NCBI GenBank assembly: GCA_031835245.2
Contig: JAVKOQ020000100.1
Span: forward strand, 62,001-126,000
Length of the DNA: 64,000 bases
From: Balamuthia mandrillaris
Taxonomy: Eukaryota
Direction of reading: 5' to 3'
The notes beneath the pieces are model-generated. The model had not been told where the DNA came from. It saw only the letters and a program-made list of their open reading frames with translations, and ran no database searches. Position 1 is the stretch's first letter, and each line of letters starts with the position of its first letter. Positions 20,336-49,289 of the stretch are shown in pieces. Both the position numbers and the translations under genes were made by a program.

Positions 20336-20949
20336 TCAAGGAACAACTTCATCCTCACCGTCCACGCTCATTGTCATCATTTCGTTTGCGGTGCTCTTGT
20401 TTGTTTTCTTGGTGCCAGGTGATTTGCCGGTTGTCTTCTCACTTGTGAAGATGCTGCTGAACTTGCCTTGTCGGGCATGGTTGAAGAAGCGCCACCAGAA
20501 GCGACCCATGGAGGGACTGATGCAAAAGTTGAAGAACAGCATCAAGCCCAAGGAGGAATAGCCGATGCTCCTCAACACCGCCAATCCGTAGTTGTGCACC
20601 TCTTCGGACAACGTACAGTTGTCGAATCTTGCTAACTCACAGAAATAGTATTCAGAGTAGCCGTCTTCGATGGTGTCTTTGGCGGTGACCACTCGCAGAG
20701 AATAGGAGAAGATGAAGGCAATGAGAACCAAGTAGATGAGGATGAAGAGGATGACCCGGAAGTATGTCCCGCAGGCCTTCTTCAATTCTTTCAGTTGACG
20801 GGCATATGTTATGAGACGCGATAATGAAGCAACAAAGAGAACAGTTCCAACCAAAAGGATGATGCCCACTGGAAGTCCCCAAAACACCAGAAAGTATACA
20901 TCTGTAGAGTCCAGCGAACAACTGCGAGTACGCTTAGATCATATGTACT

Positions 20950-20992
<43 letters not shown>

Positions 20993-22152
20993 ACAAGGAA
21001 GCCCCAGGCGAAAATGCAATTTCATCAGCAGCGGCAGGCACCATCATCAGAAAAGCAGGAACAGCCCATCCGCACACATGAAACACCACTTGAAGTCCAA
21101 TGTTCCATTGCTGAGTTTTTGGTAATTTGTTTCCAAAGAATACCTTTTGTAACGTATAAGAAAAACACCCTAAAATAATGTAAAGGAGAAAGGAGGTCAT
21201 ACAGAAAGGAACATGTTGAGAGCAACGATGCCCCACCACATGGTGCTCGACAAGAATCCCATCTGCACCAACCATCCTTGAAATGTGCACAGTCCCGAAT
21301 GCACCGCCATTTCCTTCATCTTAAACTCAACTCCGATCGTTAAGTCTCTCACATAACCTTCGGGCATGAGGTAGACGGTGTTGAAGCCGCACCAGGTGTT
21401 GTCGTAGCCAAAGAATGTGGGAAGGATCATGCCCACCGACTCCAGATGAGCAGCCACCGCTGCCATCAAGATCAGGTTCGAGGGGAACCGCCTTAGTTTT
21501 GGATGTATGACATAGGATAGAGCCAATATCAAGCTTCCAGCCTATTTTGAAGGCAGAGTAAGACAAAAACAGCAACGGAAAGATAACACGAAAGAGCGCG
21601 CACAATAGATGCTAGTTCTAAAAAAACTACAAACCCATGAAAGCCAGCCCAGTACCAGTTGCATGACCTTAATATTGTTATACTGTTCGCCAGAGTAAGC
21701 CGGTAAAGGGCATGTAAAGCCGCATGCGTTGCTGTTTGGAATGTTATGGAGAGGGTCTTCGCAAATGAGCAGGGCCGACCCATTGGAGCTCATGCTGTTG
21801 CATTCGATTGTGAGGCGATCATTCTCGGTTTGGTTGGCAGGGAGAGGAATGCTATAGTTCTGGGATTGGTAAAAGGCCTCGCCATTCGTGTCGGTTTCAG
21901 TACAGGAGAGAGGAAAGTCAAAACCGGGAGGGAAGTACAAGCCAGCACCAATCGGATAGCCTGTTCTCTGTTGGTATTCAAGACACAGGTGAACTGACAC
22001 ATGCATGAGAATTAATAGATGAATGTGAATGCAAACTAAAGTTACTCACTGTAGTCTTCACATGAGGATTTGCAAGGTTGAATAGGCGTAACAACGTATG
22101 AGTCATTGCTGCCACCTTTTTCCAAGATAATGAATAAAATGAATAAGGAAGT

Positions 22153-22203
<51 letters not shown>

Positions 22204-22436
22204 AGAGAATACTTTGGTTAAATCGAGGACATGGTCTTAGGAAAGTGGCACAAGCCAACCGTCCCCAATACTGCCGACACGTGGAGCCAAGGGAACGGTC
22301 GTCGCCGAGAGAACCAATATAATTAACCGCCTGCTTCACGGCTTCTTGCAACGCAACAAGGTTATTCCCTTCTGGAACATAAATCACTACTTCCCCTGTT
22401 TATCCAAGCAACGTTAGTGCGCACACCAAACCAAGA

Positions 22437-22478
<42 letters not shown>

Positions 22479-22670
22479 AGAGAGGGAGAGAAAGAGCGAA
22501 AGAAATAAAGCAAATGTACCGCTCCAAAAGTCAAACTGAGCACAGAATTCGGGTTCACTGTTCCATTCTTCGCAGTGTTGTCCCAAGGTAGTGGAAAGGA
22601 GTGAGGCAAGGAGAATGAGCACTGTCGCCACCCACCGCCCCAATCTTTTTACGTTTGTGCTGGCCTCCAT
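20336..22670 (-). CDS. Frizzled/Smoothened-like GPCR copy B (Cys-rich domain + 7TM)
   Basis: Signal peptide; Fz-like Cys-rich domain (C..YWGRLACATFLRPC..QPCKSSCE; CGFTCPLP); FPSNLIL, CTFQG, WWGIVA, FHVCGWAVP and FWGLP motifs; seven hydrophobic segments. Confidence 0.85.
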
Positions 22671-23299
22671 CAGTGTCGCGCTTTACCGGCAAACTGAGTC
22701 GGCAACGCAAAAAAAAATTTCTAGCTTCCCTTGACGCTGATAGTGTAATGATAATAATGTCCGATTGTTTCCAATAGTTTGCAATTAGGCCAATATTAAT
22801 ATCCTCAGAATTAATACAAGATCACCAGGCGAGCCCTCCGATCCTACCATTAAAAGCTATCATGGAACATCCATGTTGCTCCACACCGCTAATGTCTCCG
22901 CCAACAACGACATCGGGTTCTATAACGTCATCATATACCAAGCCAGAGTCTCCGCACAGAGACAGGTCAAATTTTTTTAAAAACAAAGTTAAAAAACAAA
23001 ACATAGCAAACCTACTACAACACAAAGTTGAAGGGCCGAGCCAACAGGGTGAATGATATTTCCTACCACTTTTTTTAAAAAAAATAAAACAGTGCATTAA
23101 CACTTAAAACAAAATAGTACTGTTGTTTCGATTTGTACGAAAATAATAAAGAGTTATCACTAAGACTATACAATGCGTTGTCAGCATTCAAAATGTTGCG
23201 GCTTATTGAAGCAGGCCACCTATTATTGAGGGATGTTTATGCGGTTGCTAAGCAAGGCGGCCAATAAAATGAAAATAAGCAAACCTTGTGATGAAGAAG

Positions 23300-25639
23300 T
23301 TAAGGCATGAATTCCTCCTCTGCAAAGTCCACGCTCATCGTCATCACTTCGTTTGTTTCAGTGCTCTTGCTCTTCTTTCCAACAGGAGATTTCCCAGTAG
23401 GAGTCTTCTCGCTGGTAAACACGTTGCTGAACTTGCCTTGTCGGACGTTGTTGAAGAAGCGCCACCAGAAGCGACCCATGGAGGGACTGAAGCAAAAGTT
23501 GAAGAACAACATTAATCCGAGGGAGGAATAGCCGATGCTTCGCAACACCGCCAATCCGTAGTTGTGCACTTCTTCAGAGAGAGAGCAGTGTGGCAATCGG
23601 AAGAGCAAACATAGATAGTACTCGGAGTAGCCGTCTTCGATGGTGTCTTTGGCGGTGACCACTCGCAGAGAATAAGCGAAGATGAAGGCGATAAGAACCA
23701 GGTAAATGAAGATAAACAATACTACCCGTAGGTAGGTCCCGCATGTTTTCTTCAGCTTGTTCAGTTGACGCGCAAACAGCAGAAGACGGGTCAATGAAGC
23801 GACGAACAGAACGGTTCCCACCAAAAGGATAATGCCGACTGGAAGTCCCCAAAACACCAAAAAATGCACATCCGCCGAATCCAATGAACAGCTGCATATC
23901 ATCGTCAAAATTTGGTTGTACCATGAGACAGATGGAGCGATATGGAGAGAAACCAGAAGGAGGAGAAGGACAGTACAAGGAAGCCCCGGGCGCAAAGGCA
24001 ATTTTATCGGCAGCAGCAGGAATCATCATCAGAAAAGCAGGAACCGCCCATCCGCACACATGAAACACCACTTGAAGCCCAATCATCCATACTTTAGAGT
24101 CTGGCAATTTGCTTCCAAAGAACACCTGTTGCCAAAGTAAACATGTTAGTAGTGTTGCAACAAATGACTAAATGCAAAACTAGATAGCAAAAGGCGGTAC
24201 GTACGGAGAGGAACATGTTGAAAGCAACGATGCCCCACCACATGGTGCTGGACAAGAATCCCATCTGCACCAACCATCCTTGGAATGTGCACAGTCCCGA
24301 ATGCACCGCCATTTCTTCCATCTTAAAATCAACACCAACCACAGTGTCTCTTGCGAAAAATTCGGGCATGAGGTAGACGGTGTCGAAGCCGCACCAGGTG
24401 TTGTCGTAGCCAAAGAATGTGGGAAGGATCATGCCCACCGACTCCAGATGAGCAGCCACCGCCGCCATCAGGATCAGGTTCGAGGGGAACTTGCGCAGTT
24501 TGTTATGCAGCGCGTAGGATAACACCACTATGAGGCTTCCTGCCTAAATTCATTTGGTTTCAACAGAGGAGGAGCGAACAAATGAGGAAAAGAAAAAAGA
24601 ACAGGATAACCAAATGGGTAGAGACAGATACAGAAACAAGGAAGAAAACGCACCCATGAAAGCCAGCCCAGTACCAGTTGCAAGACCTTAATGCCATCAT
24701 ACTGGCTGTCAGAGTAAGCAGGTAAAGGACAAGTGAAGCCGCATGCATTTTTGTTTTCAACGTTACGAAGCGGATCCCCGCAAATCACCACTGTTGAACT
24801 GTTGGAATGGATACCATTACACTCCAACACGATGGAGTTTTCGGTTTGGTTGTTGGTGGAAAGAGAAACGTTATAACTGTTGGATTGATAAAAGGGTGCT
24901 CCGTTTGTGTCTGTTTCATTGCACATCATTGGAGGTTCGAAGCCAGGAGGAAAATACAAAGCCATGCCGATTGGAAAGCCTGTTGTCTTCAGATATTCTG
25001 AACACATTTGTACTAATTCAAAGACATTAGGAAAAAGGGCTTCAGTTTTGCGTCCTCAAAAAACTTACTGTAGTCGAAACATGTGGAGCTGCATGGCTGA
25101 ATTGGTGTGACAAGGAACGAGTCGTTATTGTCGGTGATATCTAGAAAGGACAGATAAGACAAGGACAACGGTGAGCACAAGAGAAAGAGAGAGGGAGGGA
25201 GAGAGAAATGAAGGAGAAGGATAGATGTGAGTACTTTGAGGAACTCGAGGGCAAGGCCTTAAATAAGTGGCACAAGCCAAACGTGCCCAATACCTTCCAC
25301 ACCTAGTTTCTATAGAACCGTCATCTTTGAGAGAGCCCACAATGTTTACTATCTGTTTGACGGTCTCTTGCATAACAAAGAAGTCCTCCCCTTCCGGAAC
25401 GTATATCCGTACCCCATCTCCTACATACTGAAGTTAAACAAAAACCAACTACCTGCATACAGAGAGAGAGAGAGAGAGAGAAATACACAAAATGTACCAC
25501 TCCAAACGTCAAACTGAGCACAGAAATCGGGTTCGCCGTTCCATTCTTCGCAGTATTGTGAGAGTGCCGTTGACAGGAAGAACAAAAGGAACGTCGTTGT
25601 TGCCGGTAGCTCCAACCGTTTACAAACGTGGCGCGTCAT
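23300..25639 (-). CDS. Frizzled/Smoothened-like GPCR copy C (Cys-rich domain + 7TM)
   Basis: Same exon structure and motifs as copy B, with near-identical TM exons. Confidence 0.85.
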
Positions 25640-28313: not shown

Positions 28314-30634
28314 TCAGGGAGCGTGAAGGTTGTCTTTGTCACCGCTGGCGCGTGGGGTGGTGGGACAGGAGAGGGGCTTTTGGTTGTTGCTTGTGGCTGC
28401 ACAGGCGGCGTGCTTGCTTGGGTCGCTGGCACCGCCGCCACTGCTGTCACCGGGTGACGATGCGGCGGCTGCTATCGTGATGGTGTTCTTGTCGTGAGAG
28501 CCTCTGGGCGTGGAGGGGCTTGAGATGGAGCCTCGTCTCTGCCTGCCTCCGCCCATCTCTCTGGTTATTGCCAACACGGTTAGCAGAAGGAGGAGAAGGA
28601 GAAGGAGTAGGAGGAGAAGGGGAAGGAGGAGTAGGAGAACAATAACACAACAAGCAAGCAGAACATGTTATGTACGCACATGAGGGTGGGCGGGTCGCTG
28701 ACGACAACGGACCGGTCTCGCGTAAAGCCAGCGCCAGAGGAGGAAGTTGAACGATCGAGCTGCGATACGAAAGGCCCAGAGAAGAGCAGCTTGGAGTCCT
28801 GGAGGAGAGGGGCCAGCTCCATGCCGTTCTCCTGGGTGCACCTCTTGACCTCCTCGAGGGTAAGGAGAGCCCTGCTGGCCACGAGGTAGATCAACCCCTC
28901 CAACACGGTCGGCGAGAAGCGGTTCTTGAGGAAGCTCTGGAAGCCGGCCTCACGAGGTACCGACGCCTCTTCCAAAGAGGAGGCAGCGCCCGCAGAAGAG
29001 AAAGAGGAAGAGGAAGACGAGGAGGTGGGAGAGGTAAAGCGCCATCCTTTAGTGGCGGTGGTGGTGAAGAGGGTATGAATGTTCTTCTCCACGTTTTTGT
29101 TGCGGGAGCCATAGAGAGTAAAGATGGGCACACGCACCAGGCCAAGGCTCTCGCTGGTGAGCCTCTTGCGGGCCCTGGCCTCGGCCTTCTCGAACTGCGC
29201 CATGGTCACCTCCTTGAAGTAGAGGTGAGTGGTCATGCTCTCGTCCCACATGCGGTAGGACGCCACCCTTTGGTACTGAGCCGCATCGTAGAGGGAGGAT
29301 GACGATGGTGCGGATGACGGTGGAGGGCTCTCTTGCGCCACAATGGAGACCGATGGCTTGCTCAAGGAGAGCAGGCCGCCCTTCTTGCTGTCGCTTCTGG
29401 TCCGCTTGCCGCTGTTGCTCTCTTTGTCTTTGTCCTTGTCTTTATCTTTGAGGGAGCCGTCCAGCTTGCGAGAGCCAGAGCTGGTGGCGCTGTCTTTGCG
29501 CTTCCTCTCCTTGATGCTCCTGCTGCGTTCTTTCCGTTTACCGCCCTTCTCGCTGATCGATGCCTCGTCGCTGGCATGCTCCGAAGCATCGGTCAGTGAG
29601 AAGCTATCCGACGTCGTCACTTTATCCTTGAGGGAACCCTTGCGAGTGCTGCTGGACCGCTCTCTCCTTCCCTCCTTCTTCCGCCCGTCCTTGCCAAACT
29701 TTTCATGAAGAAGCCTTTCCAGGGCCCCCTCGAAGCTCTCCTCCAGCTCAATATAGCCCCCAATCCAGGACAGAGAGCCGGTCCAGCTCATGCTCATCAG
29801 CGCCAAGGAAGAGGTAACCTCAGCTCGCAGCGGAGAGGAGCTGTGGGCTCTCTTTCGAACGGATTGCTGTGGGGTGGTGGTGGGGCCGCCAGAGAACGGG
29901 TGAGACTCTCTCACCACCAAGGTGACGTAGAGCCGCTCCTTGGGGGTAAACTGGAAGGGTTGACCAAGCTCTTTCTTGTTGGGGATGCGAATGACCTCTT
30001 TGACAATGCCCAGCCGCTTGACGTCGGAGATTGAGGGCCTGCTCTCCAAAAATGCCTTCATCTTCTCCTGCGAGTTCTTTCGTTCCCGCGTTTGTATTTC
30101 GGTCTTGATGATGTTCATGTTGACAAGGTCAGCCTGAGAGGGTCTTCTTTGTAGGAATGCGTCCAACATCTGCTTGCGCAGCAACTCAAAGTGATGATCG
30201 CTCTCGGCTTCTGGTGCCAGCGCTGCGGTGGCTTCTTGCTGCAGCTCTCGCAACTGTTTCATAAGTCGGTCGCCCTCGTGAGCATCGATGGTGGAGCGCT
30301 GGGAGTTACCAGCGCTTCCGCTGGATCCTCTGAGAGCTAGAACGCCGGAGGATGTCAATGGGTAGAGTGCGCCTTCGCTGTTCTGACGAGGACGCGTCTT
30401 ACTGCCCGGCGCCCCCTCCGTTTTCTCGTTTATACCCTCTGTTTTCGCTTTATCTTCTTGTTCGTCTGTTTTGCTTTGGTTGCCCTTCCGCTCAACACTC
30501 ACTGGAGAAAGGACTGATACGGATCGAGTTCTCACCATCTTTCTTCCTCCACTATCCATTATTGCAGATAGCACATCATCATCAACTGCAGGGTATAAAA
30601 TGTTTAAAACAATTTGAGAATGAATGAAAACACT

Positions 30635-30680
<46 letters not shown>

Positions 30681-32157
30681 TGGATTATCGAACCGGCAAT
30701 GCTCTCTCGCGACTCTCTACGAATCCTATCAGTTAGTATCTCGTCGCGTCCGGTGAAATGCCGAGTGCTCTGACTGGTCAGCTTCATCTTCTTATCCAGC
30801 CCTGGGTTGGTTCTCTTCCCCCCCGCCCGCATCGATGGAGGCACAATGGTGGCAAAGATTTGAGCGCTGCCCAAACCGCCTCCTCCTGGTTCGCTTTGGC
30901 TGTGGGAGCGCACTCGCGTGGGCGGTGTGTAATATTCAGAATCTACCAAGGCATTGAAGTTGGTAGAGATCCTGAACTGGTTGGTGTTTTCTAACGTGCG
31001 TGAGGCTTGAGCGGGCATGGTTGACGGACGTTGGTTAGCACCAGGAAAGGGCGGAGAATCCTGAGTGCTGGACTTGTGCTCCTTGTTCTTCTTGCTGAAG
31101 CCAAGACGGAACATGTTCTTTTTCTTTTTGGTCTTCTTTGCCGCTTTGATTCTTAGCTTCTCAGCGTTTTCTCTTTCTGGAGGGTGTTGATATTGTTTAA
31201 AAATGCAGCCAAATGCGAGAGGAGAGAGAGAGGAGGGACAGAGAGAGAGAGAGATACCTTTAATAAGAGCTAAGTAAGGAGGATACTTTTGGAAACGATC
31301 GTAGGCATCATTTTGCATCAACAAGACAACAGCCCGTTGAGCAGCCATAAACAGATTCCTGTGAAAGACCTGTTCCAACAGTTCTAAGTTTGTTTCCTGG
31401 ATGTTGCCCAAGATCTGTTGGCGTAGGTCCTTTCGTTGCTCAGAGCTGATGTTGACCTCTTCTGGAGAGCCTGCTTTCAGGAAAGTATTGTAGATCAGCA
31501 TGGCCTTCTTCGCTCGCGACAGGACCGAGACCAGTGCTTTGTACCGCTCCACCTCCTCCCAAAAGTTAAAGTTCTCCAGGATGAAGCACTCTTGGCAAAA
31601 TTGTTTGAACAGTTGTTTCTGGACTTCGTCGCTCAACAGCTCCAGCAACCGAACCTTTCGGGTGCCTGCATGCTGTTGGCCAGTGTTGTTGGCATCCGTT
31701 CCTGCATCGCTATCGAGAGGAGACTTTGAAGTAAGAGGCTCAGGGCTGGATCCGCTTTGTGTGATGCGGTCTCTGCGCGGCGAGCCTTTGAGTCGAGGCG
31801 AAATACTGGCCACGAGCTCTGCCTGCAATGCCGCGTTCGCCTGAGCGTGAGCTGCGTTATAGAAAGGTAGTTTTGCAACATATTGCTCGTGTGTTGGTAC
31901 ATGAAGAAGAACGAATCAGAGACAAAAACATGGACGGATGTGCGTACCCTCTGTCGACATCATGCAACCAGGACTCGGCGAAGAGCTCGTGCAGATGAAG
32001 ATACTTCAACAACACGACGAAAAAAAATAAATAAATAGAGCCCACACTTGGTTTTCGTTCGACGGAGTTGAAACAATAAGGTTAGAGCAGAGCTCTTGCA
32101 GAGGGGGCTTTCCTTGGAAACGTAAAGCGTCTTTGCCAAAGCGTCGTTCCTTCTTCC
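28314..32157 (-). CDS. RGS domain + two RPEL repeats + degenerate NUDT16-like Nudix domain protein; 5' end uncertain
   Basis: RGS: LLELLSD..LFKQFC..ENFNFWEEVERYK..EVNIS..FMAAQRAVVLLMQNDAYDRF. RPEL: FLQRRPSQADLVNMNII and FLESRPSISDVKRLGIV. Nudix-like: WIGGYIE..LERLLHEKFG..HLYFKEVT..LGLVRVPIFTL..FLKNRF. The last exon ends at 28314. Confidence 0.8.
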
Positions 32158-36862: not shown

Positions 36863-39706
36863 ATGAAGAGCGCCCTTCCTACCCTGCTGCTTCTTCTCTC
36901 AATCTGCAGCTCTCTTCCGGCGATAACGTTTGGTTCACATGACGTAAGAGTTGATTGGGAAGTGATAGGACAGAACTACACGGGTCCCGTTGACGTGGAG
37001 GAAAACATAGAGTCAAGAACGGGGAGAGCTTTGACTTGCGGGCACTTCGACGGCGACAGCTTGGTAGAGTGAAACCCTTCAACATGAAAGAGTGTGTGAT
37101 GAATGAAAGGAGAAGAGATGGTGTTAGATGAGAAGGAATAGAGAAAAAGAGAGAGCAGTATGCAGTACTGACCGCATTGTTTCTGCAGGTTGATCTCATT
37201 ATTTCTGGGGATGGTGCGTTGGGTAGAGACCTTGATGGTAACATCTGTTCCACCTTTGATAGCAACATCTTTCCCCCTTTCTTTCTTTAGATGCTAAGAG
37301 AGGGCAACAACAGGGAACTTGGTGGTGAAGAACGCCGGTCGCGCTTGGTTCATCTTCGGTTCAGAGGCGTTGTCTACTGGAGACTTGTCCCCCGAAAGCC
37401 CTGTCTCATTCGCGGGAACCAATACCAACGACTATGTCGGCTCCGCTGTGGCTGCTGGTGATGTCAACGGAGATGGATTGGTGAGCTCTCCTCTGTTTAT
37501 TGTTGTTTGATTTTTGTTGTTTGTTATTTTCCTTTTCATCTGCTCCCATCACTGTCTCACCTTTGAATGCTGCATCCATCAAACAGGACGATGCAGTGAT
37601 CTGTGCAAGTCAAGCTGATCAACACGGTTTCTGTGCCATCATCTTTGGCAACAACGAGCGGAGCGTGCCCACATCACAGAGACAAGTCAAGAACGAAAAT
37701 GGCTTCCTCGTGACTGACTCGGACGTGTACACCGGCTTCGGTTCTTCTGTCGCCGTGCTGGATATCAACCACGACGGCTATGCCGATGTCTGTGTTGGTG
37801 CTCCTCACTCTGAAAACAACAAGGGTAAGGTCCACTGCTTCTTTGGCAAGCAGTCTGGCTTCCCTCGGCGGTTTGAGACATCTCGTCTCAACGGGCTGAA
37901 CGGTATCACCATCGTCGGTGAATACGCCAGCGATCTTTTCGGTATCAGTTTGGCTGGTGGTGACATTGACAATGACCAACGCCATGACCTCGTGGTGGGT
38001 GCCACTGGAGCCTTCACCGGGGATGTGGACTACCATGGAGCTATTTACGTCATTCTCGGTCGCGGTGCGCTCCGTCAGAATGCCAACTACCAAGTGGGCA
38101 ACTTGGTGGCCAACCAACAAGCCTACTACATGGAAGGTTACGATGGTAACACTGGCTTCGGTCGGGCAGTCGCCACTGGAGACTTCAACGCCGACGGCGT
38201 GGTACGTTTATCCCCCTGGCCTCTTTCTTTCTCACCTTAGAAATCCTGTTTTTTGAAGAGAGTTAATGACAACGAACATTGCTTCTGCTCCCTCTCGCGC
38301 TTCTCTCTCAGACGGATATTGCCGTGACAACTGAGTTTGGAACCTATGCTTACCTTATTCTGGGCGGTTACGCTCCCTACAACCCCGATGCCTACTTCAA
38401 CCGCGGTCTCAGAATCCGAGGCTACGGTGACCTCAACAAGGATCCCCACTGGACTTCCGTGGCCTTTGGCGACGTCAACGGCGACGGCGGCGCGGATCTT
38501 ATCTTGGGTGCTGCGCGCGGCACCACCAACGAGGCCAAGGTGCAGAGCGGCTACATCGCCATTCTGTATGGTTTCTGTAATGAGGGCACGGCCTTTTACA
38601 AGAGCAGCATCATGCCCACCGTGGAGCTCAGCCAGGCCACCACCGATGTTACCATAGTGAGAGGCAACCTGAACGACGAGGGGCTGGGCACTGGCCTCGG
38701 TCTCTCTGTACTCTCCGTTCCCGACGGCTTTGGCAGGTCCAACATCTTGTACGGCTATGAGGGGGAGAACAGGGCCAGCTTGGTCTTCGCCAACGCCATC
38801 ACCGGCGAGACGGACCCGCTGGAGTGCGCTGCTTTGCAGGTAACCACCGGCGGCACCACCATCTCCAGCACCATCACCACCTCCTCTGCCACCACCGGAG
38901 ACTATTCCACCACCACCGCCACCTCCACCACAGGAGGCGGAAGTACCACCGGAGGGGCCTCCTCTACCACCACCACCGGAGGGGCCTCCTCCACCTCCAC
39001 CACGGGCGTGGGCAGCACAACCGGCTTCGTTCCGCCTACCGTCAACCCGCTGGAGAACGGGGTGATCTCGGAGCAGCCGGTCACGCAGAGGGGCATCACC
39101 TACTTCCAGATCGATGTGCCTCAGGGGGCCGCCACCTTTCAGGTCCTCGTGACGGAGGGAGAGGGCTCTGACACGATGTGCGCGTTGGTGCGGAAGGCCG
39201 ACCTCCCCACCGAGGAAGACTTTGACTACCGAAGGTGCTCCAACCTGATCGAGCTGGACGTTGAAAACACCGGCCTCTCCGTCAGGGAACACACGGATGA
39301 CCCCTGCGAGCTCGTCACTTACTTTGTAGCGGTGCAGGGCAACCCTGGGGATCACTTCTCCATCGTGGTGGCCTGGGGCACTGGCTGCGACGGCTGCGGC
39401 TCCGTTGAGGACAGATGCGGCGACTGCCCCGCCACCGGCACCTGCGAGTGCGAGGTCGGCAGCTACCGCAGCTATGAAGAGGACCTGCTGGACCAGAGCT
39501 TGTTGACATGGGAGACCCTCCGACTGAGGCACAGCGTGCGGACGACCCGCCAGGTCATCCAGGAAATCCAGGAAGCCATCCTCGAAGGCAAAACCACCAC
39601 CCCCGAGTTTTACGATGAGCACTTTGAGCTAGCGAAGACGTTCCTTGCAGAGATTGAACTGTTTAACTCGCAAGCCCAACTCGTGGCCAACGCTTTGAAC
39701 GCGTAA
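36863..39706 (+). CDS. Secreted FG-GAP (integrin-alpha beta-propeller) repeat protein with a Thr-rich stalk and C-terminal domains
   Basis: Signal peptide MKSALPTLLLLL. Repeated DxNxDG/FG..GAP motifs (GHFDGD, GDVNGDG, FGSSVAVLDINHDGYADVCVGAP, FGISLAGGDIDND, FGRAVATGDFNADG). T/S/G-rich linker; no TM segment at the C-terminus. Confidence 0.85.
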
Positions 39707-39969: not shown

Positions 39970-42900
39970 TTACTCGCTCAAGGGGATAGGCAACCACCGT
40001 TGCAGCGTTTGGCGAAGCTGCGCCAGTTTCAAGGGCTTGCTCATGAAAGCAGTCATGCCGGCCTCCTCGCAGCGCTGCTGGTCTCGGTCCATGCCGCTAG
40101 CTGAGAGAGCCACTATAGGAAGGTTGCTGAGGTAACGCCGCCGACGAACATCCATCTCTGCTCGTTGGCTCATTTCCCTCAGTTGCTTTGTGGCCTCGTA
40201 GCCGTCCATGATGGGCATGGCCAGGTCCATCAGCACCAGGGCAAAGTGTCCCGTCGGCGCTGCGTTGATGATGTCGATGGCTTCTTTGCCGTTGGTGGCG
40301 ACCGTAGCAGGCAAGCCTAGCTTGCGGAGCTGCGCCAGCACCACTTTGATGTTGACGCGATTGTCCTCCACTACTAGTATGTGGTTCGTTTTGTCCGGTG
40401 TTGTTTGTGTCACGTCCTTTTCCTCATTTTTCGTTTCCGATTTTTGTACAAGTGACGGGTGACCAGCTGCTGTGTTTCGTTCTGTTTCCTCTTGTTGTTC
40501 CTCCTCTTCCTCCTCTTCTTCCTTTGATGGATGCCGTTGCTGTTGATAGCCCTTTTCTCGATCTTTGCAGCCGCTGAGACTATGCCAAGAAGACAAGGAC
40601 TTGGCAATGGCGGCACGTATGCACTTGGTTAACTCGCTCTTCTTGATGGGTTTGGTAACATATCCACTGCTGAGATGACTGCCAAGCATGGCCAACCCCT
40701 GACGAGCCAGCCCACGTGCTGTCTGCGAGGACCCACTCATCAGCACCACTCGCAACCATGATTGGTGTCGATGCAGTGCTCTGCCAGTATTGATTGCAGA
40801 TTCCAAGTTGGGAGACGCTATGTCCAGTACAATAATGGTGAATGGACGCCCTTGTTTTAGGCCTCGGTAGAAGAGTCGCAAGCCTTGTTCCATGCTTGTC
40901 GATCCTTCGCATTCTAGGTAAAGAATAGATAATAATGAGATACGGAGATGAAAGATAAGGAGAACGAAGGAGAAGGAGAAGAGCAAGAGCAACAAAAAGA
41001 TACGCACCAACAATATCGCACAACTGCAGAAGAATCGAATCGAGACTGTGCTGCTTGGCCTCAATAACGAGCACGCGTTGGTCGTATGGGTGCATGAGAC
41101 AACCATCGGTCGAATAGCTAGTTTGTAGTTGTTTCAAGGTGAAGCGATGTCCTGATGCACTACTACTGGACGGGGATGGTAGAAGTTGGCAGCGCCAAGT
41201 GAACCAGAACGTGGAGCCTTTTCCAGGTTTTGTGGTCACTCCAATCTCTCCTCCCGCTATCTCCACTAACCGTTTGCTGATGGCCAAGCCAAGTCCCGTG
41301 CCACCATGTTCTCTCGTTGTAGAAGAGTTCACTTGACTAAAGGATTGAAAGATTTTCTGCACGCCTTCCTCGCTGATACCAATGCCCGTATCTATAATTT
41401 CCACATGCAGAATGACTTCTTTTGGATTATATCCAAAGTTGTCGCTCTCATTTTCCTGCGACTCTCCAGTAGCTGTCTCCGCTCCCGGTTCAAGCGCATA
41501 AGAGTGGGGAAAGGAAGAGGAGGCAATGGGTGATTGTTCAACGATAGAGTAGCGAACCTTCACCATGACCTCTCCGCCTCTTTCCGTGAATTTGATGGCG
41601 TTATTGATGAGGTTCACAAGCACCTGTTGCAGGCGGAACGGGTCGCTGCGTACCCAAAGACCCGAGCGAGAGGTCACCAGGTCCGACATGTTCACCAGTT
41701 CGATTTGACGCATCCCGGCTTGCTCCGCGAACATGTCCATGGTTCTCTCTACTAGCGAACCAACCTCAAACTCGGAGCAATGAAAGAGCACTTTGTCCAT
41801 TTCCATCCTTGAGAAGTCCAAAATGTCATTCACAATCTCCAATAACAGTTCGCTGCAGTTTGTTCAGTCAGAGACCAAAGCGCATCAACATAAGCCATTC
41901 TGAAGAAAAACATGAGAAAGAAAGGTCCTACCTTGAATGTTGAAGAGTCTGCACCATCTCCTTTTGCTCTGCATTGAGCGGCGTATCTCGGAGCATTTCC
42001 ATCATGCCGATAATTGCATTCAGAGGAGTACGAATCTCGTGGCTCGTGTTGGCCATAATCATGCTTTTGGCTTTGTTAGCAGCTTGTGCTGCCTCTAGCT
42101 GTGTCTGTTGCTGCATTCGTTCCTCCATCAGCCGGGCTTGATTGAGACCGAGGCCTACCTGCAACGCTATTTGCAGCAACAAGGCTTTGTCTACTTTGCT
42201 CCAGCTATTATCTCTCATTTCTTGGATAACAAGCCTAGAGGAGGTTGAACTAGAAGGAAGAGGAGCCCATCGTACACATTGCAGCAGACCCCAAACTTTG
42301 TCTCTCATAGGAATGATGGCCGAGATGCTGTTCTCTGCTTGCAACTCGTTGGGAAGCATTGCCACCAACCGCTCCGTTTGCGTGGAGTCTTGCCAGATGT
42401 CAGTAGCCGAGAAGTTGACATCCCACAAACCCGCTCCGCTTTCGCAGTTGTTCATTGCGAATTTAAGGCCAAGATACCGTTTTTCAGGTAACCGGTGGCT
42501 GTCTACGCTTTCGGCGGGGATGGTGCACACTTGTTGCGTTGGACATGGGTAGCGTGCATCCCTCTCACATTCTTCTTCTTCTACTTCTGCTACCGCTTCT
42601 TCTGTTCCCACATATCGATCTTCGTATTCTTTTGCTGCTAGAGTTCGATCAGGTACTTCCAAGTCCTTGCCGTTCTTCTTTATTCTTCGTTGTCCCGAAT
42701 CAGCAGAGAGGCTGCGACGGCGAATCGAGTTTTGAGCTTTGCTGGGTTGTAGCTTTTGCCGTCGCGATTGAGGAGGACTGGAATCCTGTTGTGGCGTGTT
42801 CTTTCGTTCGGGATCCCCTGTATCGTAGTCACCATGACGTTGAGTTCCTTTGACTTCTCCATCTGAATCCGTTCCAGAAGCCTCTTCGGTAGTGCCGTGA

Positions 42901-45287
42901 TTCGTACTGGTGATGCTTCTCTTTCTTGCCACCTCCTCGAAGCGATAGATACGCACTGCGTCTGCCTTCAACACTGCTCTAACCTCCGCAACGGTGCTGT
43001 CCAACACTTCCTGCATGCTGATTTTTCCACAACGAATCTTCTCACCAATTCGCATTACCAGATGCTTCCGTTTGACGAGTTGCTTTTCTCTGAGATTCAT
43101 CTGCTTCCTCAGCCTACTCAGCTTGACAGTAGCTCTGGCTTTTGCTACCAGTTCTGTGGCCGAAAAGGGTTTGGCAAGGTAGTCATCTGCGCCTGAATCT
43201 AGACCTTCTGCAGAAGCGTCTGGTCCAGCACGTGCAGACAGTAGGATAAATGGTATGCTGTGCGTCTTTTTGTTGGCACGAACATCGTGCAATAGGGAGA
43301 ATCCATCCTTGATTGGCATCATTACGTCACTGATGACAAGATCAGGTGGCGGAACACGGCATATCATTCTGAGAGCCTCCGCTCCATTCGTCACAGTCGT
43401 GACACGAAAATGGGGGCTCAACAATCTCGAAACGTAGTTCCGCATATCTGCGTTGTCATCTGCAATAAGCACGCGCGGTTTGCTTGATAGCATCTCACTT
43501 GCTATTTCTTCCATTTTTTCTTGTTCGAATTCTTCCTCTTCCTCTTGTCTTTCTCGTTCATCTTCTGCTTCTTCTTCTTCAACTTTTTCGTCCAAAATCT
43601 CCCCCTTCCCCATTGGCCGCTTAAGCAAAGACTGTGCCGAATTGGTGTCCCAGTTGAGGATCTCGCTGGCATATTGGTCGGTAGTGTAGCACCCAGCTAT
43701 CTTGTTCTGAGAGACGGAATCCCGTTGACCGCAGTCGGCTACATCATCACTCAGTGGCATAACCACTTTATCGCGTGGTAGGTGCTTGTAACCGGATGGG
43801 ATGAAAACGGTGAAGGTGGTGCCTTTGCCTTCTTGACTCTCCACCCTTATAGTGCCTCCATGAAGTTTCACCAATTCTTGGGCCAGCGCAAGGCCGATGC
43901 CCGATCCTTCGTGGCTACGGGCCTTATCGTTTTGAATGCGATAGAATCGTTGGAATAGTTTCTGTAAGTCCTTCTCAGCGATCCCCACTCCTGTGTCCTT
44001 TACTTGCATCTCCATTCCCCCGTTCACCCTTTCAACAGAAACGGTGATGCTTCCTTTCCATGTGAATTTAAGCGCGTTTGAAACCAAGTTCAGAACGATC
44101 TTCTCCCACATATCTTTGTCTACGTATATCTCTTCTTCATTCGCAGACTTTGTTGACTTCACGCATCGCGTGATCAATTGAAGGCCCAGTCGCTCCGCCG
44201 ACGATTCGAATTCGCTCACTAACTCTTGAGTAAATGTTCCCAGGTCTATTGGTCGATATCTTGCTTGTACACTGGGAAGTACGTGAGAATTCACGTTGCA
44301 CATTACTGCAAAAATGATGGGAATTGAGTACGAACCGGCCAACTTCAATCCTGCTGAAATCGAGCAGAGTATTGACAAGCTTAAGAAGCCTTTGCCCATT
44401 CCTGAACACCGTTTCTAACTGTTGTCGATGATCGGGAAGGAGATTCTCTGACTGAAGAAGGTCTGCAAGTGGAGCCACGATCAGTGTTAACGGGGTGCGA
44501 AACTCATGGCTTATATTGCAGAAAAAATCAGTTTTGGCTTTATCGAGTTCAGCAAGCTTCTCTGCCCGTTTGCGTTCTTCCTCTCGAGCCTGATGAATGG
44601 CAACATTGGTTAGCCTTGTTTGAAAGACAAGTTACGTACTGAAAATTACCTTGGCATTATTCAGAGCAGTTGATAAATGACCTCCAACCAAATTGTAAAA
44701 TTCTTCATAGTAGGTATCAAAAGGGAGAAATGGGTTGACACGAGCCACCATCACAGCCGAGGTGTGACCTTGCTCTTCGTAGGAGGTTGTCACTGGCACC
44801 AGCATCACACGTCCTTGCCCTTCTGGCAGCGAGACCAACATTGTTGTGCCTGTCGCAAAAACTTGTGCTACGGGCCAATCCTTTCCAAGCGCCGCGTGCT
44901 GGTATTTAGAAGAGGGGTTCATTGTTGGCTGAGCTCTTCTGGGCGAGACGCCAGCCCGCGAATTGGTTCGTGGAAGGTTGTTGCTTTCTTCTTGTTCTTC
45001 TTCATCAAAAGCAGTAAGGGAAACGGTTGTGGGAAGGGTCAGCAAAGCAGAAGGAAAATCTTCAGGTTGCTCTTTGCTTGCGTTGTCAGGAGCGTATTCT
45101 TTGTCATTGTCTTCGCGCTGCAAGTCCTGCTCGAAGGTGCTTGCCACCAGTGTTGCAGTTTTGTTGTCTTCTGACGCCAAATAGATAAACGCAAACGGTA
45201 TGTCCTTATTGCCCTTTAGTGTCTGTGCTGTAAGCTTGCACGCCTATTATCATCGTTCATTGGTACGATAGAATGAGTTCATCATGA

Positions 45288-45334
<47 letters not shown>

Positions 45335-46082
45335 CGGGAAGGAGAGAGAGAAAGAGAGAGAGAGTGAAAGAAGAGGAAGGAGAGAGACGAAGAAAAACAC
45401 ACAAAAAAAGGAAAAGAGGAAAACAAACGTCAGCGAGGCAAGAGGCTGAAGGGGTGCGGATGGCCAACTCAGACAGAGTATTTAAGCGTCTCTCGCTCAT
45501 AACTCGCTGAGAGGTCTCAAAACACACGTTGACAAGGCCAATGATGGAGTTATCAGGGCCTCGCAAGGGTGAAAAGCTGAAGGAGTAGTAGGTCTCCTCC
45601 ACGTAGCCATGGCGCTCCATCATGAGGCGAGTGTCATGACACAAAACCCCCTTTCCAGAGGAGTACGCCTCGTCCATCAGAATACCAACGACGTTCCAGA
45701 TCTCTTCCCACACTTTTTGCCCAGGTTGACCCATGGCTTGGGGGTGCTTTGTTCCGAGCGTTGGCCGCCATGCCTTTCACAAAAAGAGAAAAAAAAAAGA
45801 GGGGGGAAAAAAAGAGGGAGGGAAAGGGGAAGAAACAAAAAATCAGGAGCTGTTGAGGAGAAGGAAAACGAGGAAAAGGAAAAAAAAAAAAACAAGTACA
45901 TCTCCGTAAATGAGGTTGCGCCCAGGACCCAAGTAGAGCGCCATGGGGAAGGTGCTCTCCAAACAGAGTTCCACCGCAGCGACCAGTTGGGGGGGCCACT
46001 CTTCCCTTGGCCCAATAGGAGTCTTGGACCAGTCCATGGTGGCCACCAACTCAGCAGCGGTGATGCTGGTTGGGCATTCCAT
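39970..46082 (-). CDS. Dual hybrid histidine kinase: PAS-GAF-HisKA-HATPase-REC-GAF-HisKA-HATPase-REC(degenerate)-REC
   Basis: N-terminal [14 protein letters not shown]. Two H-boxes: [10 protein letters not shown] and [10 protein letters not shown]. Two N/G boxes: [22 protein letters not shown] and [22 protein letters not shown]. Receivers: ISDVMMP..AKP and LMDLAMP..SKP. Confidence 0.92.
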
Positions 46083-46451
46083 TGTTCCCCACCCGCTCTG
46101 CTTTTTTGTTTGTTGTTTTTTTTTTTGAATCGTTCTCTTTCTCCAGCTCTACCCTTTTATTGTTGTTATTCTTCCTTCCTTCTCCTCCCCTCCAGCGTCA
46201 CAGGGCTTGTTTTTTTTTTTTTGTTGTTGTTCCTGTATTTTAAATAAATGAAGCAACAACACCCAACGCCTTTGCGTGGCTTTCCTGCCTTTCAAATTAT
46301 ATTTTTTTTTTGCCTTGACTGGTTGTGTATGCGTGTTGTTGCAAAAAGGGATGATGAACGTCCCCAAACGAGGTCGCCATGCTGGTTTTTTCGTTAGGAG
46401 CATATGTCCCACCTGCCATCCCGCATCAAACAATAGAGTTGAGGGAACGAG

Positions 46452-47426
46452 TTAAGTTTGACAGTTTTTATTTAAAGGAAAAAAACACAAGTCCAAATTT
46501 ACTAAGCAAACCACCGTAAGAAAACAAGCGCTGTGGTTGTCTAATGAGTGTCGCCAAGGGATGGTCAAGCAAGAAAAGCTTTTTAAACGACCAATGGCCC
46601 TTTCAATGTCAACACGTTCTCCTCCATGAACTTGGTTAAACTCTAAAAGAGTACCAGTTACATGTCCTTTGAATGGTGTAAGAAAACAAGATTCGCCTTG
46701 GTAGGCCTTATCACCTAAAAGAAGCTCTTGTTGTCCCACATAAGGAAGAAGCCCTTCTCGTGCAATCGTTAAATCATGTACTCGGCCAGCATAAGGGCCA
46801 CTCACCCAAGTTATGAGCTCTGTGGAAAGGTCCAAAACAAGCTCATACTTAAGTGTGTGTTTTTTCTTTTTGCCAGAATAGAAGTTGCGTTGTGTTTTAA
46901 CACCAGATGGTCGCTGAATTGGACACTCGGTGGTATCCACAATACCTGTGATTCCTGTTCTTGAAGTGTGGTGAGCTTGAACAAATTGCTAAAAAGAAAA
47001 AGGTGAGACAAACAAATGCTAAAGTCAAAACCCAACAACAAGAAAAAAAGGAAAACAAAATAAAACAAAAAAACAAAAAACAAAATCAAATCAAAAACAA
47101 TAACAAAAAAGATGAACCTGAAACATATCAAATGATAACTGAGAAGCCAAAGCCTTGATGATAGTCCAAACCCAGTAACGAAAGGTCTTTGGGGTGCAAG
47201 AACAAAATGAACAGGCAACATCTTCAGTGGGGTAGACCTTTAAAAAATAAAGAGCCCACAATAGGTACTTTGGTTTCAACGGACGCTCAAACTTAAACCT
47301 TTTCAATATGTCCCAAATAATGGCAGTGGTTTCAAAGCTAGCTCCAAAGTGTGCTCGCCATGTTCTTTCTGTAACGTTTTGAATAAGTGTTTCTGCTGTT
47401 GAAAGCAACAAAAAAAACTCTTCCAT
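46452..47426 (-). CDS. Harbinger/IS5-like DDE transposase (DDE_Tnp_4 / HARBI1-like), two exons
   Basis: Exon 1 is 47426-47118 (HTH-like LLWALYFLKVYP..TFRYWV). GT-AG intron 47117-46989. Exon 2 is 46988-46452 with IVDTTECPIQRP, FYSGKKKKHTLK, GRVHD, LLGDKAY and RVDIERAIGRLK. In frame, about 281 aa. Confidence 0.9.
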
Positions 47427-47988
47427 CTTCTTCGTTCTAAACTTATTGATGATAATTGTCAAAATTTGTGTTATGAAGAAAAAGTTACTCAAATATATTA
47501 TCGCTTTTTGAAATAATTGCCTATAACGGATAAAAAGCTTAAAAGGAGAAATAAAATCGGAGAAAATAATGGAGAAATAAACCGGAGAAATAAACCGGAA
47601 AATAATCGGGGATATTTTCCAGGTCGGTTTTTTGCTTCTGCACAAAACACACTCAAATCACGCTCAAAACATGCTCAAAACACACACAAAACACATTCAC
47701 AAGCTCCGAAATTTATTTGAATTTTTCCAATCATAATTCAAAATTTGTTTTTTTTGATTTTTGATTCGTCTATCAGATGAAATTTCAAAAACTCCGAATG
47801 TGTTTTGTGTGTGTTTTGAGCGTGTTTTGAGCGTGTTTTGAGCAGCAAACAGGAACCGCTTTTTTTCCTTGACGGGAGTAAAGGAAAATTTTTCGTAATT
47901 GATTATATTTTAATTTTCCGGAGGATGATTTAAGTAGAATTTTTTGCAACCCGCACGATGTTTTTTTTTTGTACAACCAGACTGCAGT

Positions 47989-49012
47989 ATGCCCAAGTGG
48001 AACACACAAGAAACAACAATCATCACAGATGTGTACAAAAAAACAGGGCCCGAGTTGACTGAGCACGCCTTTGCTGAGCTTAAAGACAAACTCACCCGCC
48101 GTTCTGAGCGTGCTATTTTACAAAAATGGAATCTTCTCAAAAAACAAACCCAAGAAAAGACCCAAAACACACAAAAAGCAGGTATGATTTTTTTAACTTG
48201 GTGCTATTATCTCTCATCTTTTTCTCATCTTTCTTTTTATTAGCGTCTATGCTTCCAAATCTTCTTCAGTTGCGCCAGCAAATGTGTGGTGTACCTCCTC
48301 AAACTGCTGTTTCACAACGTAAGTTTTTTTTTTTTACTTTATTTGAAGATTATTTTTGTGACTGGTTTTTTTTTAAGCCACTTCCACTCCAACTGCCTCA
48401 GTTCCGTCCGTTCAAGCACAGAGGAATGAAGAAGAGGAAGCAGAAGAGGAGGAGGAGGAAGAACCAGAAGAAGAAGAAGCAGAAGAGGTCACTGTGTACC
48501 ACAACACTGCTTCTTTTGACCCTTGGAGCCCGCCTATTAAGAGGAGACGCTGCGAAGAAAACCCTTCTTCCTCCTCCTCCTCCTCCTCCTCCTCCTCCTC
48601 CTCTTCCTCCTCTCTTTCATCCTCGCTGCAAGGAATCTCTCCTATAAATATAAAACTTTTTATGTGGCATATTACCACAAGTCGTTCCCTTTTTTTATTC
48701 TTTCGCCAGTTGCCTGGGCTGTCATTTGAAGTGGACTGGGATGACAGCAATGACCACGTTTTAATTGTGACTGTCAAGCGTGCCCGTCTTGATCAAGCTG
48801 AATTGCGAGAGATGATGGATTTCCTCCCGTTCAACACAGACATCGATTTATTAGATCAAAACAACCATGCTCACATTGCACAGTTCAAACTGTACTTTGA
48901 GCACAGGTTGGATTCGCCAACAACCTGGACATTTGCAGAGAAGACTTATCTTGTTCGGTGGACGATCCCCTTCTTCCGTCGCGACCATGAGGACGTGAAA
49001 ATTGGTTTTTGA
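47989..49012 (+). CDS. Transposon accessory protein: N-terminal Myb/SANT-like domain, acidic/Ser linker, putative C-terminal HSP20-like domain
   Basis: MPKWNTQETTII...LKDKLTRRSERAILQKWNLLKK fits the Myb W..E....RS..AI..KW pattern. Introns at about 48182-48243 and 48319-48377. Glu-rich and Ser-rich tracts; stop at 49012, inside the TIRs. Confidence 0.8.
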
Positions 49013-49289
49013 TTTTTTATTGATTTTTGATAATAATTAAAATATGTTGAAAATTATTTTATTCCCTCAACTCTAATTTTTCCTTTAAGCCACGCTGGGA
49101 GATTTAATCACTGCATCTCTGCTCTTGCCATCTCCGTAATGGCGTGGGAGCATAGCACTAGCGCGGAAGCGATGTCCACGCTTTGGAATTAATGCCCATC
49201 AAACCTTTACCGGTTAAACGCCTGTTCTTCAAAGCCCCAAATACGGCCAGTACATGCTGGGCCACACGCGTAACGCTTCATCTACACAA

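Follow-up and report, generated by a model that had tools for sequence, protein, structure and literature searches.

The window analysed here is a 64-kb stretch of Balamuthia mandrillaris DNA (contig JAVKOQ020000100.1). It harbours a DNA transposon of the PHIS/Harbinger superfamily that spans 2,640 bp (46435-49074). A transposase gene on the reverse strand and a second gene, ORF2, on the forward strand point away from each other, with repeat arrays between them. The features are given below as position in the window, strand and description.

46432..46434, no strand: left target-site duplication AAT, identical to the three bases at 49075-49077
46435..46447, +: left terminal inverted repeat (TIR), 13 bp, AG start, perfect match to the right TIR
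46452..46988, -: transposase exon 2, DDE catalytic domain (Pfam DDE_Tnp_4, E 3.7e-29; RNA contig X1)
46989..47117, -: transposase intron, GT..AG, skipped by the X1 contig
47118..47426, -: transposase exon 1, encoding 103 aa with a putative HTH region at the N-terminus, without Pfam match
47545..47605, +: 4.8 tandem copies of a 13-bp unit upstream of the transposase (repeat analysis)
47643..47699, +: left arm of an inverted repeat inside the element, formed by 5.2 tandem copies of an 11-bp unit (repeat analysis)
47800..47843, -: right arm of this inverted repeat, formed by 4.0 tandem copies of an 11-bp unit (repeat analysis)
47989..48181, +: ORF2 exon 1, Myb/SANT-like domain with W4 and W47 (RNA reads; family profile)
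48182..48243, +: ORF2 intron 1, 62 nt, GT..AG (RNA joint 48181>48244)
48244..48318, +: ORF2 exon 2, encoding a brief conserved stretch that follows the Myb domain (RNA reads; paralog comparison)
48319..48377, +: ORF2 intron 2, 59 nt, GT..AG (RNA joint 48318>48378)
48378..48640, +: ORF2 exon 3, first part, with poly-Glu, basic cluster and poly-Ser linker (same layout in paralogs)
48641..49012, +: ORF2 exon 3, predicted C-terminal HSP20-like beta-sandwich, residues 178-300, two-helix insert, V-K-I tail (model)
49062..49074, -: right TIR, 13 bp, pairing perfectly with the left TIR
49075..49077, no strand: right target-site duplication AAT (sequence)

The superfamily assignment follows from a DDE_Tnp_4 transposase with an intact triad, short TIRs, a 3-bp duplication and a second open reading frame. 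The spliced transposase is 281 aa long, has zero internal stops and retains its catalytic motifs (D120, D196 and the E232 region), and both genes of the element are transcribed, as seen in the X1 contig and in RNA reads. Each TIR occurs as a single copy in the 64-kb window. The claim of an intact Harbinger element made in a preliminary description of this DNA holds at the level of the superfamily, given the perfect TIRs, the AAT duplication and the intact DDE transposase. Within the superfamily, the sections of PMC4482050 available to us define PIF/Harbinger by a TWA duplication, whereas both flanks here read AAT. The same sections describe Pangu elements as having an ANT duplication, TIRs of 11-40 bp that start with AG or GG, two open reading frames and a DDE_Tnp_4 domain, and Pangu is equated with Harbinger2 of Repbase in the part of PMC12730594 at hand. 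Our element has an AAT duplication, 13-bp TIRs with an AG start and two open reading frames; its size and the length of ORF2 also agree with the ranges in the portions of PMC4482050 that we cite (2.5-3 kb and 170-590 aa). Because of the AAT duplication and AG termini, the element fits Pangu/Harbinger2, not PIF/Harbinger, and judged by sequence it likely belongs to this group rather than to the canonical TWA Harbingers. ISL2EU elements, with a 2-bp AT duplication, a THAP transposase and a YqaJ second open reading frame, do not match: the flanks are not an AT duplication, and THAP and YqaJ Pfam matches are absent. A tree of 98 DDE domains, built without Pangu references, placed the transposase in a 17-member clade (support 0.97) apart from most of its metagenome relatives. 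A diverged copy in run X3 has the AAT at its left flank too but departs from the window sequence just left of it, and the element family is thus present at more than one site. Just beyond the right end of the element, 49098-49194 has a diverged match in another X3 contig, so this flank may be repeated. On the other side lies a large multi-exon hybrid histidine kinase gene (39970-46148, reverse strand; HATPase_c, receiver and HisKA domains). Its likely first exon starts ~350 bp from the left end of the element, and the insertion may therefore sit in the promoter of the kinase gene.

ORF2 had been described beforehand as a Myb-like N-terminus and an alpha-crystallin/HSP20-like domain joined on one polypeptide. 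The residues quoted for its C-terminus are indeed present in the single open frame 48377-49012, which contains both linker and C-terminal domain. RNA evidence comes from raw RNA runs with the same species label, none of the runs listed as containing the stretch being recorded as RNA; the reads carry a few fixed differences from the window and for this reason stem from a near-identical copy or allele. Both introns are spanned by reads (introns 1 and 2, respectively: 20 and 21 in X4, 18 and 31 in X5, 1 and 8 in X6) and are confirmed too by contigs of X1 and X2. The spliced gene is one 300-aa frame from the ATG at 47989 to the stop at 49012. The expectation that RNA-seq would join the Myb and C-terminal exons was thus borne out for both introns and for the frame, but not for the poly-Glu/poly-Ser linker repeat, as no read was followed through 48426-48618. 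This gap leaves room for separate products, in which the main transcript would stop within or close to the linker, leaving the C-terminal domain as a rarely expressed passenger. Coverage points in that direction: X4 depth declines about tenfold between exon 1 (~74) and the C-terminal domain (~4-6), X6 depth over the domain is zero, and X1 contig depth is 67 as against 19 over the domain. An unspliced X1 contig covers 48632-48970. Three annotated family members (P0012, P0013 and P0015), moreover, diverge mid-way through the domain. Against premature termination, 48377-49012 is a single open frame, a contig of X2 extends 168 bases into the linker, and three families that are 21-36% identical retain the fused layout. 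Nor does any run examined show a joint inside 48377-49012 that would separate the C-terminal region from the Myb exon. We regard separate products as highly improbable and consider it very probable that the Myb-like and HSP20-like domains reside on one polypeptide, a conclusion argued more strongly by the conservation of layout in paralog families than by RNA.

These paralogs come from the Balamuthia annotation, in which nine clusters or members were retrieved as full or partial copies of ORF2. Three diverged families share the layout: they open with a Myb-like region, continue through an acidic/Ser linker that contains a basic cluster, and finish with the C-terminal domain. Between families the C-terminal domain is 21-31% identical and the Myb region 25-33%, so the two are about equally conserved. 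Protein searches with the C-terminal domain gave four matches among 1.84 billion representatives, of which one was rejected, and six in a set of 5.8 billion; relatives in both sets carry only the Balamuthia label. Looked for in other ORF2 proteins, the fusion was found in three Balamuthia families and in none outside Balamuthia, a blank in protein searches that does not show absence. The source contigs of the ORF2 paralog P0006 and the transposase paralog P0022 are both 263,673 bp, and this equal size suggests that the other ORF2 families are also transposons. The source names of P0004, P0006, P0007 and P0009 (caspase p20, HECT) look wrong for paralogs of a transposon helper and were set aside, being without Pfam support for P0004 and P0009; P0006 is apparently a gene model merged with an adjacent protein of secreted type. 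The repetitive ENA protein P0003 (E 2e-5) was a spurious repeat match and was excluded from every alignment.

At the N-terminus, the ORF2 family profile aligns with c-Myb R3 at E 0.02, and PF00249 is hit in four paralogs at E 0.03-0.1, below the cut-off; exon 1 of the window ORF2 has no Pfam match. From these sub-threshold scores, the N-terminus is likely a Myb-type DNA-binding domain. A second gene beside the transposase with an N-terminal Myb/SANT-like domain, as is likely here, is also the arrangement of the Myb-like ORF of PIF/Harbinger elements (Harbinger3_DR, and the domesticated NAIF1 and HDP2).

The C-terminal domain was modelled with AlphaFold from an alignment of seven sequences and without templates. 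P0012, P0013 and P0015 were left out for their mid-domain divergence, and P0006, P0007, P0002 and P0010 as near-duplicates. All five models reached a pLDDT of 81-85 (best 84.5) and predict a seven-stranded beta-sandwich (strands 8-12, 16-22, 27-34, 37-47, 78-85, 97-101 and 104-111 in domain numbering), with helices 52-61 and 68-73 in the loop where small heat-shock proteins carry their dimer strand. A single-sequence model (pLDDT 57, best Z 5.9 to unrelated folds) was discarded as unreliable. In the Foldseek comparison with the PDB, all 38 listed rows are HSP20-like (36 small heat-shock proteins and two CS domains), the best E being 2e-3 and none listed at 1e-3 or better. A Foldseek-independent structure search of 48,161 chains returned HSP20-like chains at ranks 1-34, 20 of them small heat-shock and 14 CS/p23/NudC-type, the latter including two of presumed CS type. 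Its best Z was 8.8 (3.0 A over 81), and the first chain that is not HSP20-like had a Z of 6.4. In a second structural comparison 50 of 50 rows were HSP20-like (best Z 9.3, 4.3 A over 91), and the best viral structural match was an HSP20 protein (E 3e-3). Sequence methods were silent: Pfam gave zero families for three of three C-terminal domains, CS profile included; PF00011 had no match at E 10 in the window ORF2 or its paralogs; a PDB sequence search with the domain returned nothing; and hhalign against 24 IbpA-type proteins gave a probability of 1%, with 39 of 60 shuffles scoring as high in global mode. In the ESM Atlas the window domain fell with peptidase M16 clusters at 0.89-0.91, which we attribute to chance given the low recognition and few shared features, and the P0004 domain had no usable match. 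A Z of 8-9 is only modestly above values that unrelated models reach; we accept the HSP20-like fold nonetheless, because unanimity of matches is hard to obtain by chance, and hold the fold prediction with high confidence. The AlphaFold and Foldseek check proposed at the outset thus returned a beta-sandwich whose listed PDB matches are all HSP20-like.

Which branch of the HSP20-like superfamily does the domain come from? Small heat-shock and CS/p23 domains share the predicted seven-stranded sandwich (Z 8-9, rmsd 2.2-4.3 A, best cores) and are tied in the structural matches at a best Z of 8.8-9.3. The ORF2 domain differs from both in its low identity (4-17%), in having no profile match, in the two helices in the dimer-strand loop and in its position behind a DNA-binding domain. 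The alpha-crystallin/HSP20 claim accordingly stands for the fold at superfamily level, but not for alpha-crystallin over CS. One reading of the tie is that a CS/p23-type co-chaperone domain, derived from CS, brings Hsp90 to the transposase or acts as a private holdase, in order to fold or stabilise it. The CS domains superpose with the lower rmsd (for Shq1, 2.5 A over 77 at Z 8.8; for Sgt1, 3.0 A over 82 at Z 8.3), they make up the 14 of 34 top rows mentioned above, and W9 and W96, invariant in the domain alignment, resemble tryptophans of CS domains. In non-metazoan small heat-shock proteins the dimer strand, beta 6, lies in the loop that connects strands 5 and 7; it is missing from the model, a monomer prediction. 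Set against the CS origin are the 36 of 38 Foldseek rows that are small heat-shock proteins, and several features that follow the small heat-shock template: the L-P-G motif, a long inter-strand insert, N-G or G-L preceding the last strand in paralogs, and the V-K-I or V-Q-V tail. This tail is V-K-I in the window and P0001, V-Q-V in P0014 and inexact in P0004, P0009, P0011 and P0005, and its region of the model has a pLDDT under 50. We lean slightly towards alpha-crystallin over CS ancestry, and a co-chaperone role seems to us decidedly unlikely. As helices take the place of the usual dimer strand, the model does not predict the dimer typical of small heat-shock proteins, and the modelled domain is HSP20-like rather than a proven alpha-crystallin chaperone.

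Based on these observations, we propose that ORF2 is a spliced second gene in which the HSP20-like domain serves as a self-association and transposase-docking module, not as a stress chaperone; we put the probability of this reading, with its assembly role, at about 0.5. The oligomerisation role suggested earlier is thereby retained as the likeliest function, at even odds, on the spacing of the repeat arrays and on the plant parallel. An internal inverted repeat (47625-47858; 63-nt arms, 86%) composed of 11-bp units separates the divergent transposase and ORF2. The motif CWCAAAACA has 8 of the window's 13 matches in its two arms, with 2.6 expected window-wide; the pattern was derived from the arrays themselves, so this count shows clustering, not function. 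Among the repeats of the element, we infer that the two inverted 11-bp arrays are the best candidate binding sites for ORF2; they may instead be host promoter elements. The Myb domain would bind the element's own repeats, most plausibly these arrays, and the spacing of the 11-bp units, one helical turn, would suit a multimeric reader. The acidic/Ser linker would act as a flexible tether, its basic cluster being a possible nuclear localisation signal, while the HSP20-like domain would multimerise the Myb domains and hold or escort the transposase. Most weight is given to self-assembly and transposase docking because of the helical-turn spacing of the sites and because plant HSP20-like domains multimerise DNA readers. 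Such multimerisation is driven by alpha-crystallin domains (ACDs), as reported in the accessible part of PMC10651127, and ARID2/3/4 carry a DNA-binding domain fused to an ACD, putatively for homo-oligomerisation, in the corresponding part of PMC12071340. The Myb-like protein of Harbinger3_DR binds a 9-bp element motif and the transposase, which it carries into the nucleus, according to the sections of PMC9710019 available; this escort is a parallel for the role proposed for ORF2. Its binding repeats are subterminal, whereas the candidate repeats of our element are internal. A complex prediction for two transposase pieces and the C-terminal domain, run without alignments, scored 0.18 against a mark of 0.34, an outcome that speaks neither for nor against docking.

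The position of the arrays in the promoter region, not at the element ends, is in keeping with an anti-silencing or chromatin adaptor role. Here the Myb domain would tether the HSP20-like domain at the divergent promoter, where it would recruit or block host chromatin factors, and the element would stay expressed despite CpG methylation. Transposase and ORF2 are both transcribed, and the window copy is better preserved than its sister copies. Of the 34 listed C>T/G>A changes between 46430-48425 and the X3 copy, 16 are at CpG, against a background of 13% (p 1.6e-6), in tables that show part of the differences; in the fully listed stretch of X3 the figure is 7 of 14 against 14% (p 0.0016). Arginine loss, moreover, runs one way (5/17 for P0001 versus the window, 10/17 for P0009 versus P0004, gains 0). 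This directional CpG-type decay in sister copies suggests, at the level of sequence, that the host methylates the cytosines of these transposons, and a section heading in PMC12344493 attributes repressive 5mC to Acanthamoeba. Methylation, however, gives a motive and not a mechanism, and the sister copies did decay. The analogy with the plant IDM complex, on which the preliminary description had based its anti-silencing link, is looser than it was made out to be: neither HDP1 nor HDP2 showed an interaction with IDM2 or IDM3 in yeast two-hybrid or split-luciferase assays (PMC5339849, in the part consulted), and plant ACDs also promote silencing, as with ACD15/21 in the cited portion of PMC10651127. 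We therefore hold the adaptor role as a tentative possibility, on the unlikely side.

What are the implications of an assembly module encoded by a transposon? DNA-binding domains fused to an ACD are already known in plant host genes, and it is the combination of Myb-like and HSP20-like domains in a transposon helper that appears to be new in the literature covered. In Arabidopsis, ARID2/3/4 (ARID plus ACD) resemble ORF2 in fusing a DNA reader to an HSP20-like domain, and the MBD5/6-ACD15/21 and IDM2/3 complexes couple the two, in the MBD complexes with the HSP20-like domain as a separate partner. All of these are plant host genes, not mobile, with other DNA-binding domains, and beyond the fold they show no sign of homology to ORF2. 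Our search, which extended over literature outside Repbase, subscription papers and most supplements, found no report of a transposon-encoded Myb-HSP20 fusion, and the words HSP20 and crystallin have zero occurrences in PMC13547354 and PMC12730594. In the sources as available to us, no HSP20-like domain is reported for the Myb-like ORF of PIF/Harbinger. In the accessible sections of PMC4482050, Pangu is summarised for 15 host genomes, with no amoebozoan and no ORF2 C-terminal domain described; most second ORFs are without a known motif there, and 2 of the 29 Table S3 family rows consulted mention Myb. Annotation is all but lacking for the C-terminal halves of Harbinger-type helpers, and a defined fold offers a way to test what these transposons require a second protein for, be it assembly, transposase escort or counter-silencing. 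An element of 2.6 kb that looks intact and expressed and has candidate binding repeats is also a compact system for structural and transposition assays. A mobile element would also join plant host chromatin proteins as a setting in which DNA readers are coupled with HSP20-like domains. More broadly, we speculate that a protist Harbinger2/Pangu lineage in amoebae acquired an HSP20-like domain that became the regular tail of its Myb helper and would let it polymerise on phased promoter repeats and shield the element from CpG-methylation silencing. We rate this scenario as rather unlikely; if true, it would represent a transposon-encoded, single-chain counterpart of the plant reader-plus-ACD assemblies that are built from separate host proteins.

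Relatives of the transposase at 80 metagenome loci (30-40% identity) had no ORF2 C-terminal domain nearby; these loci are mostly short and come from 9 of the collection's 64 parts, and the blank is not evidence of absence. The same reservation applies to the transposase pattern, which had no match in viral contigs. Elsewhere in the window, two frames on the reverse strand (20339-24022) match the membrane region of Frizzled/Smoothened, a 1,111-aa frame on the same strand (28583-31915) combines an RGS domain with a Nudt16-like Nudix segment, and 37485-39706 on the forward strand encodes an FG-GAP repeat protein that has a repeat region rich in Thr and Gly.
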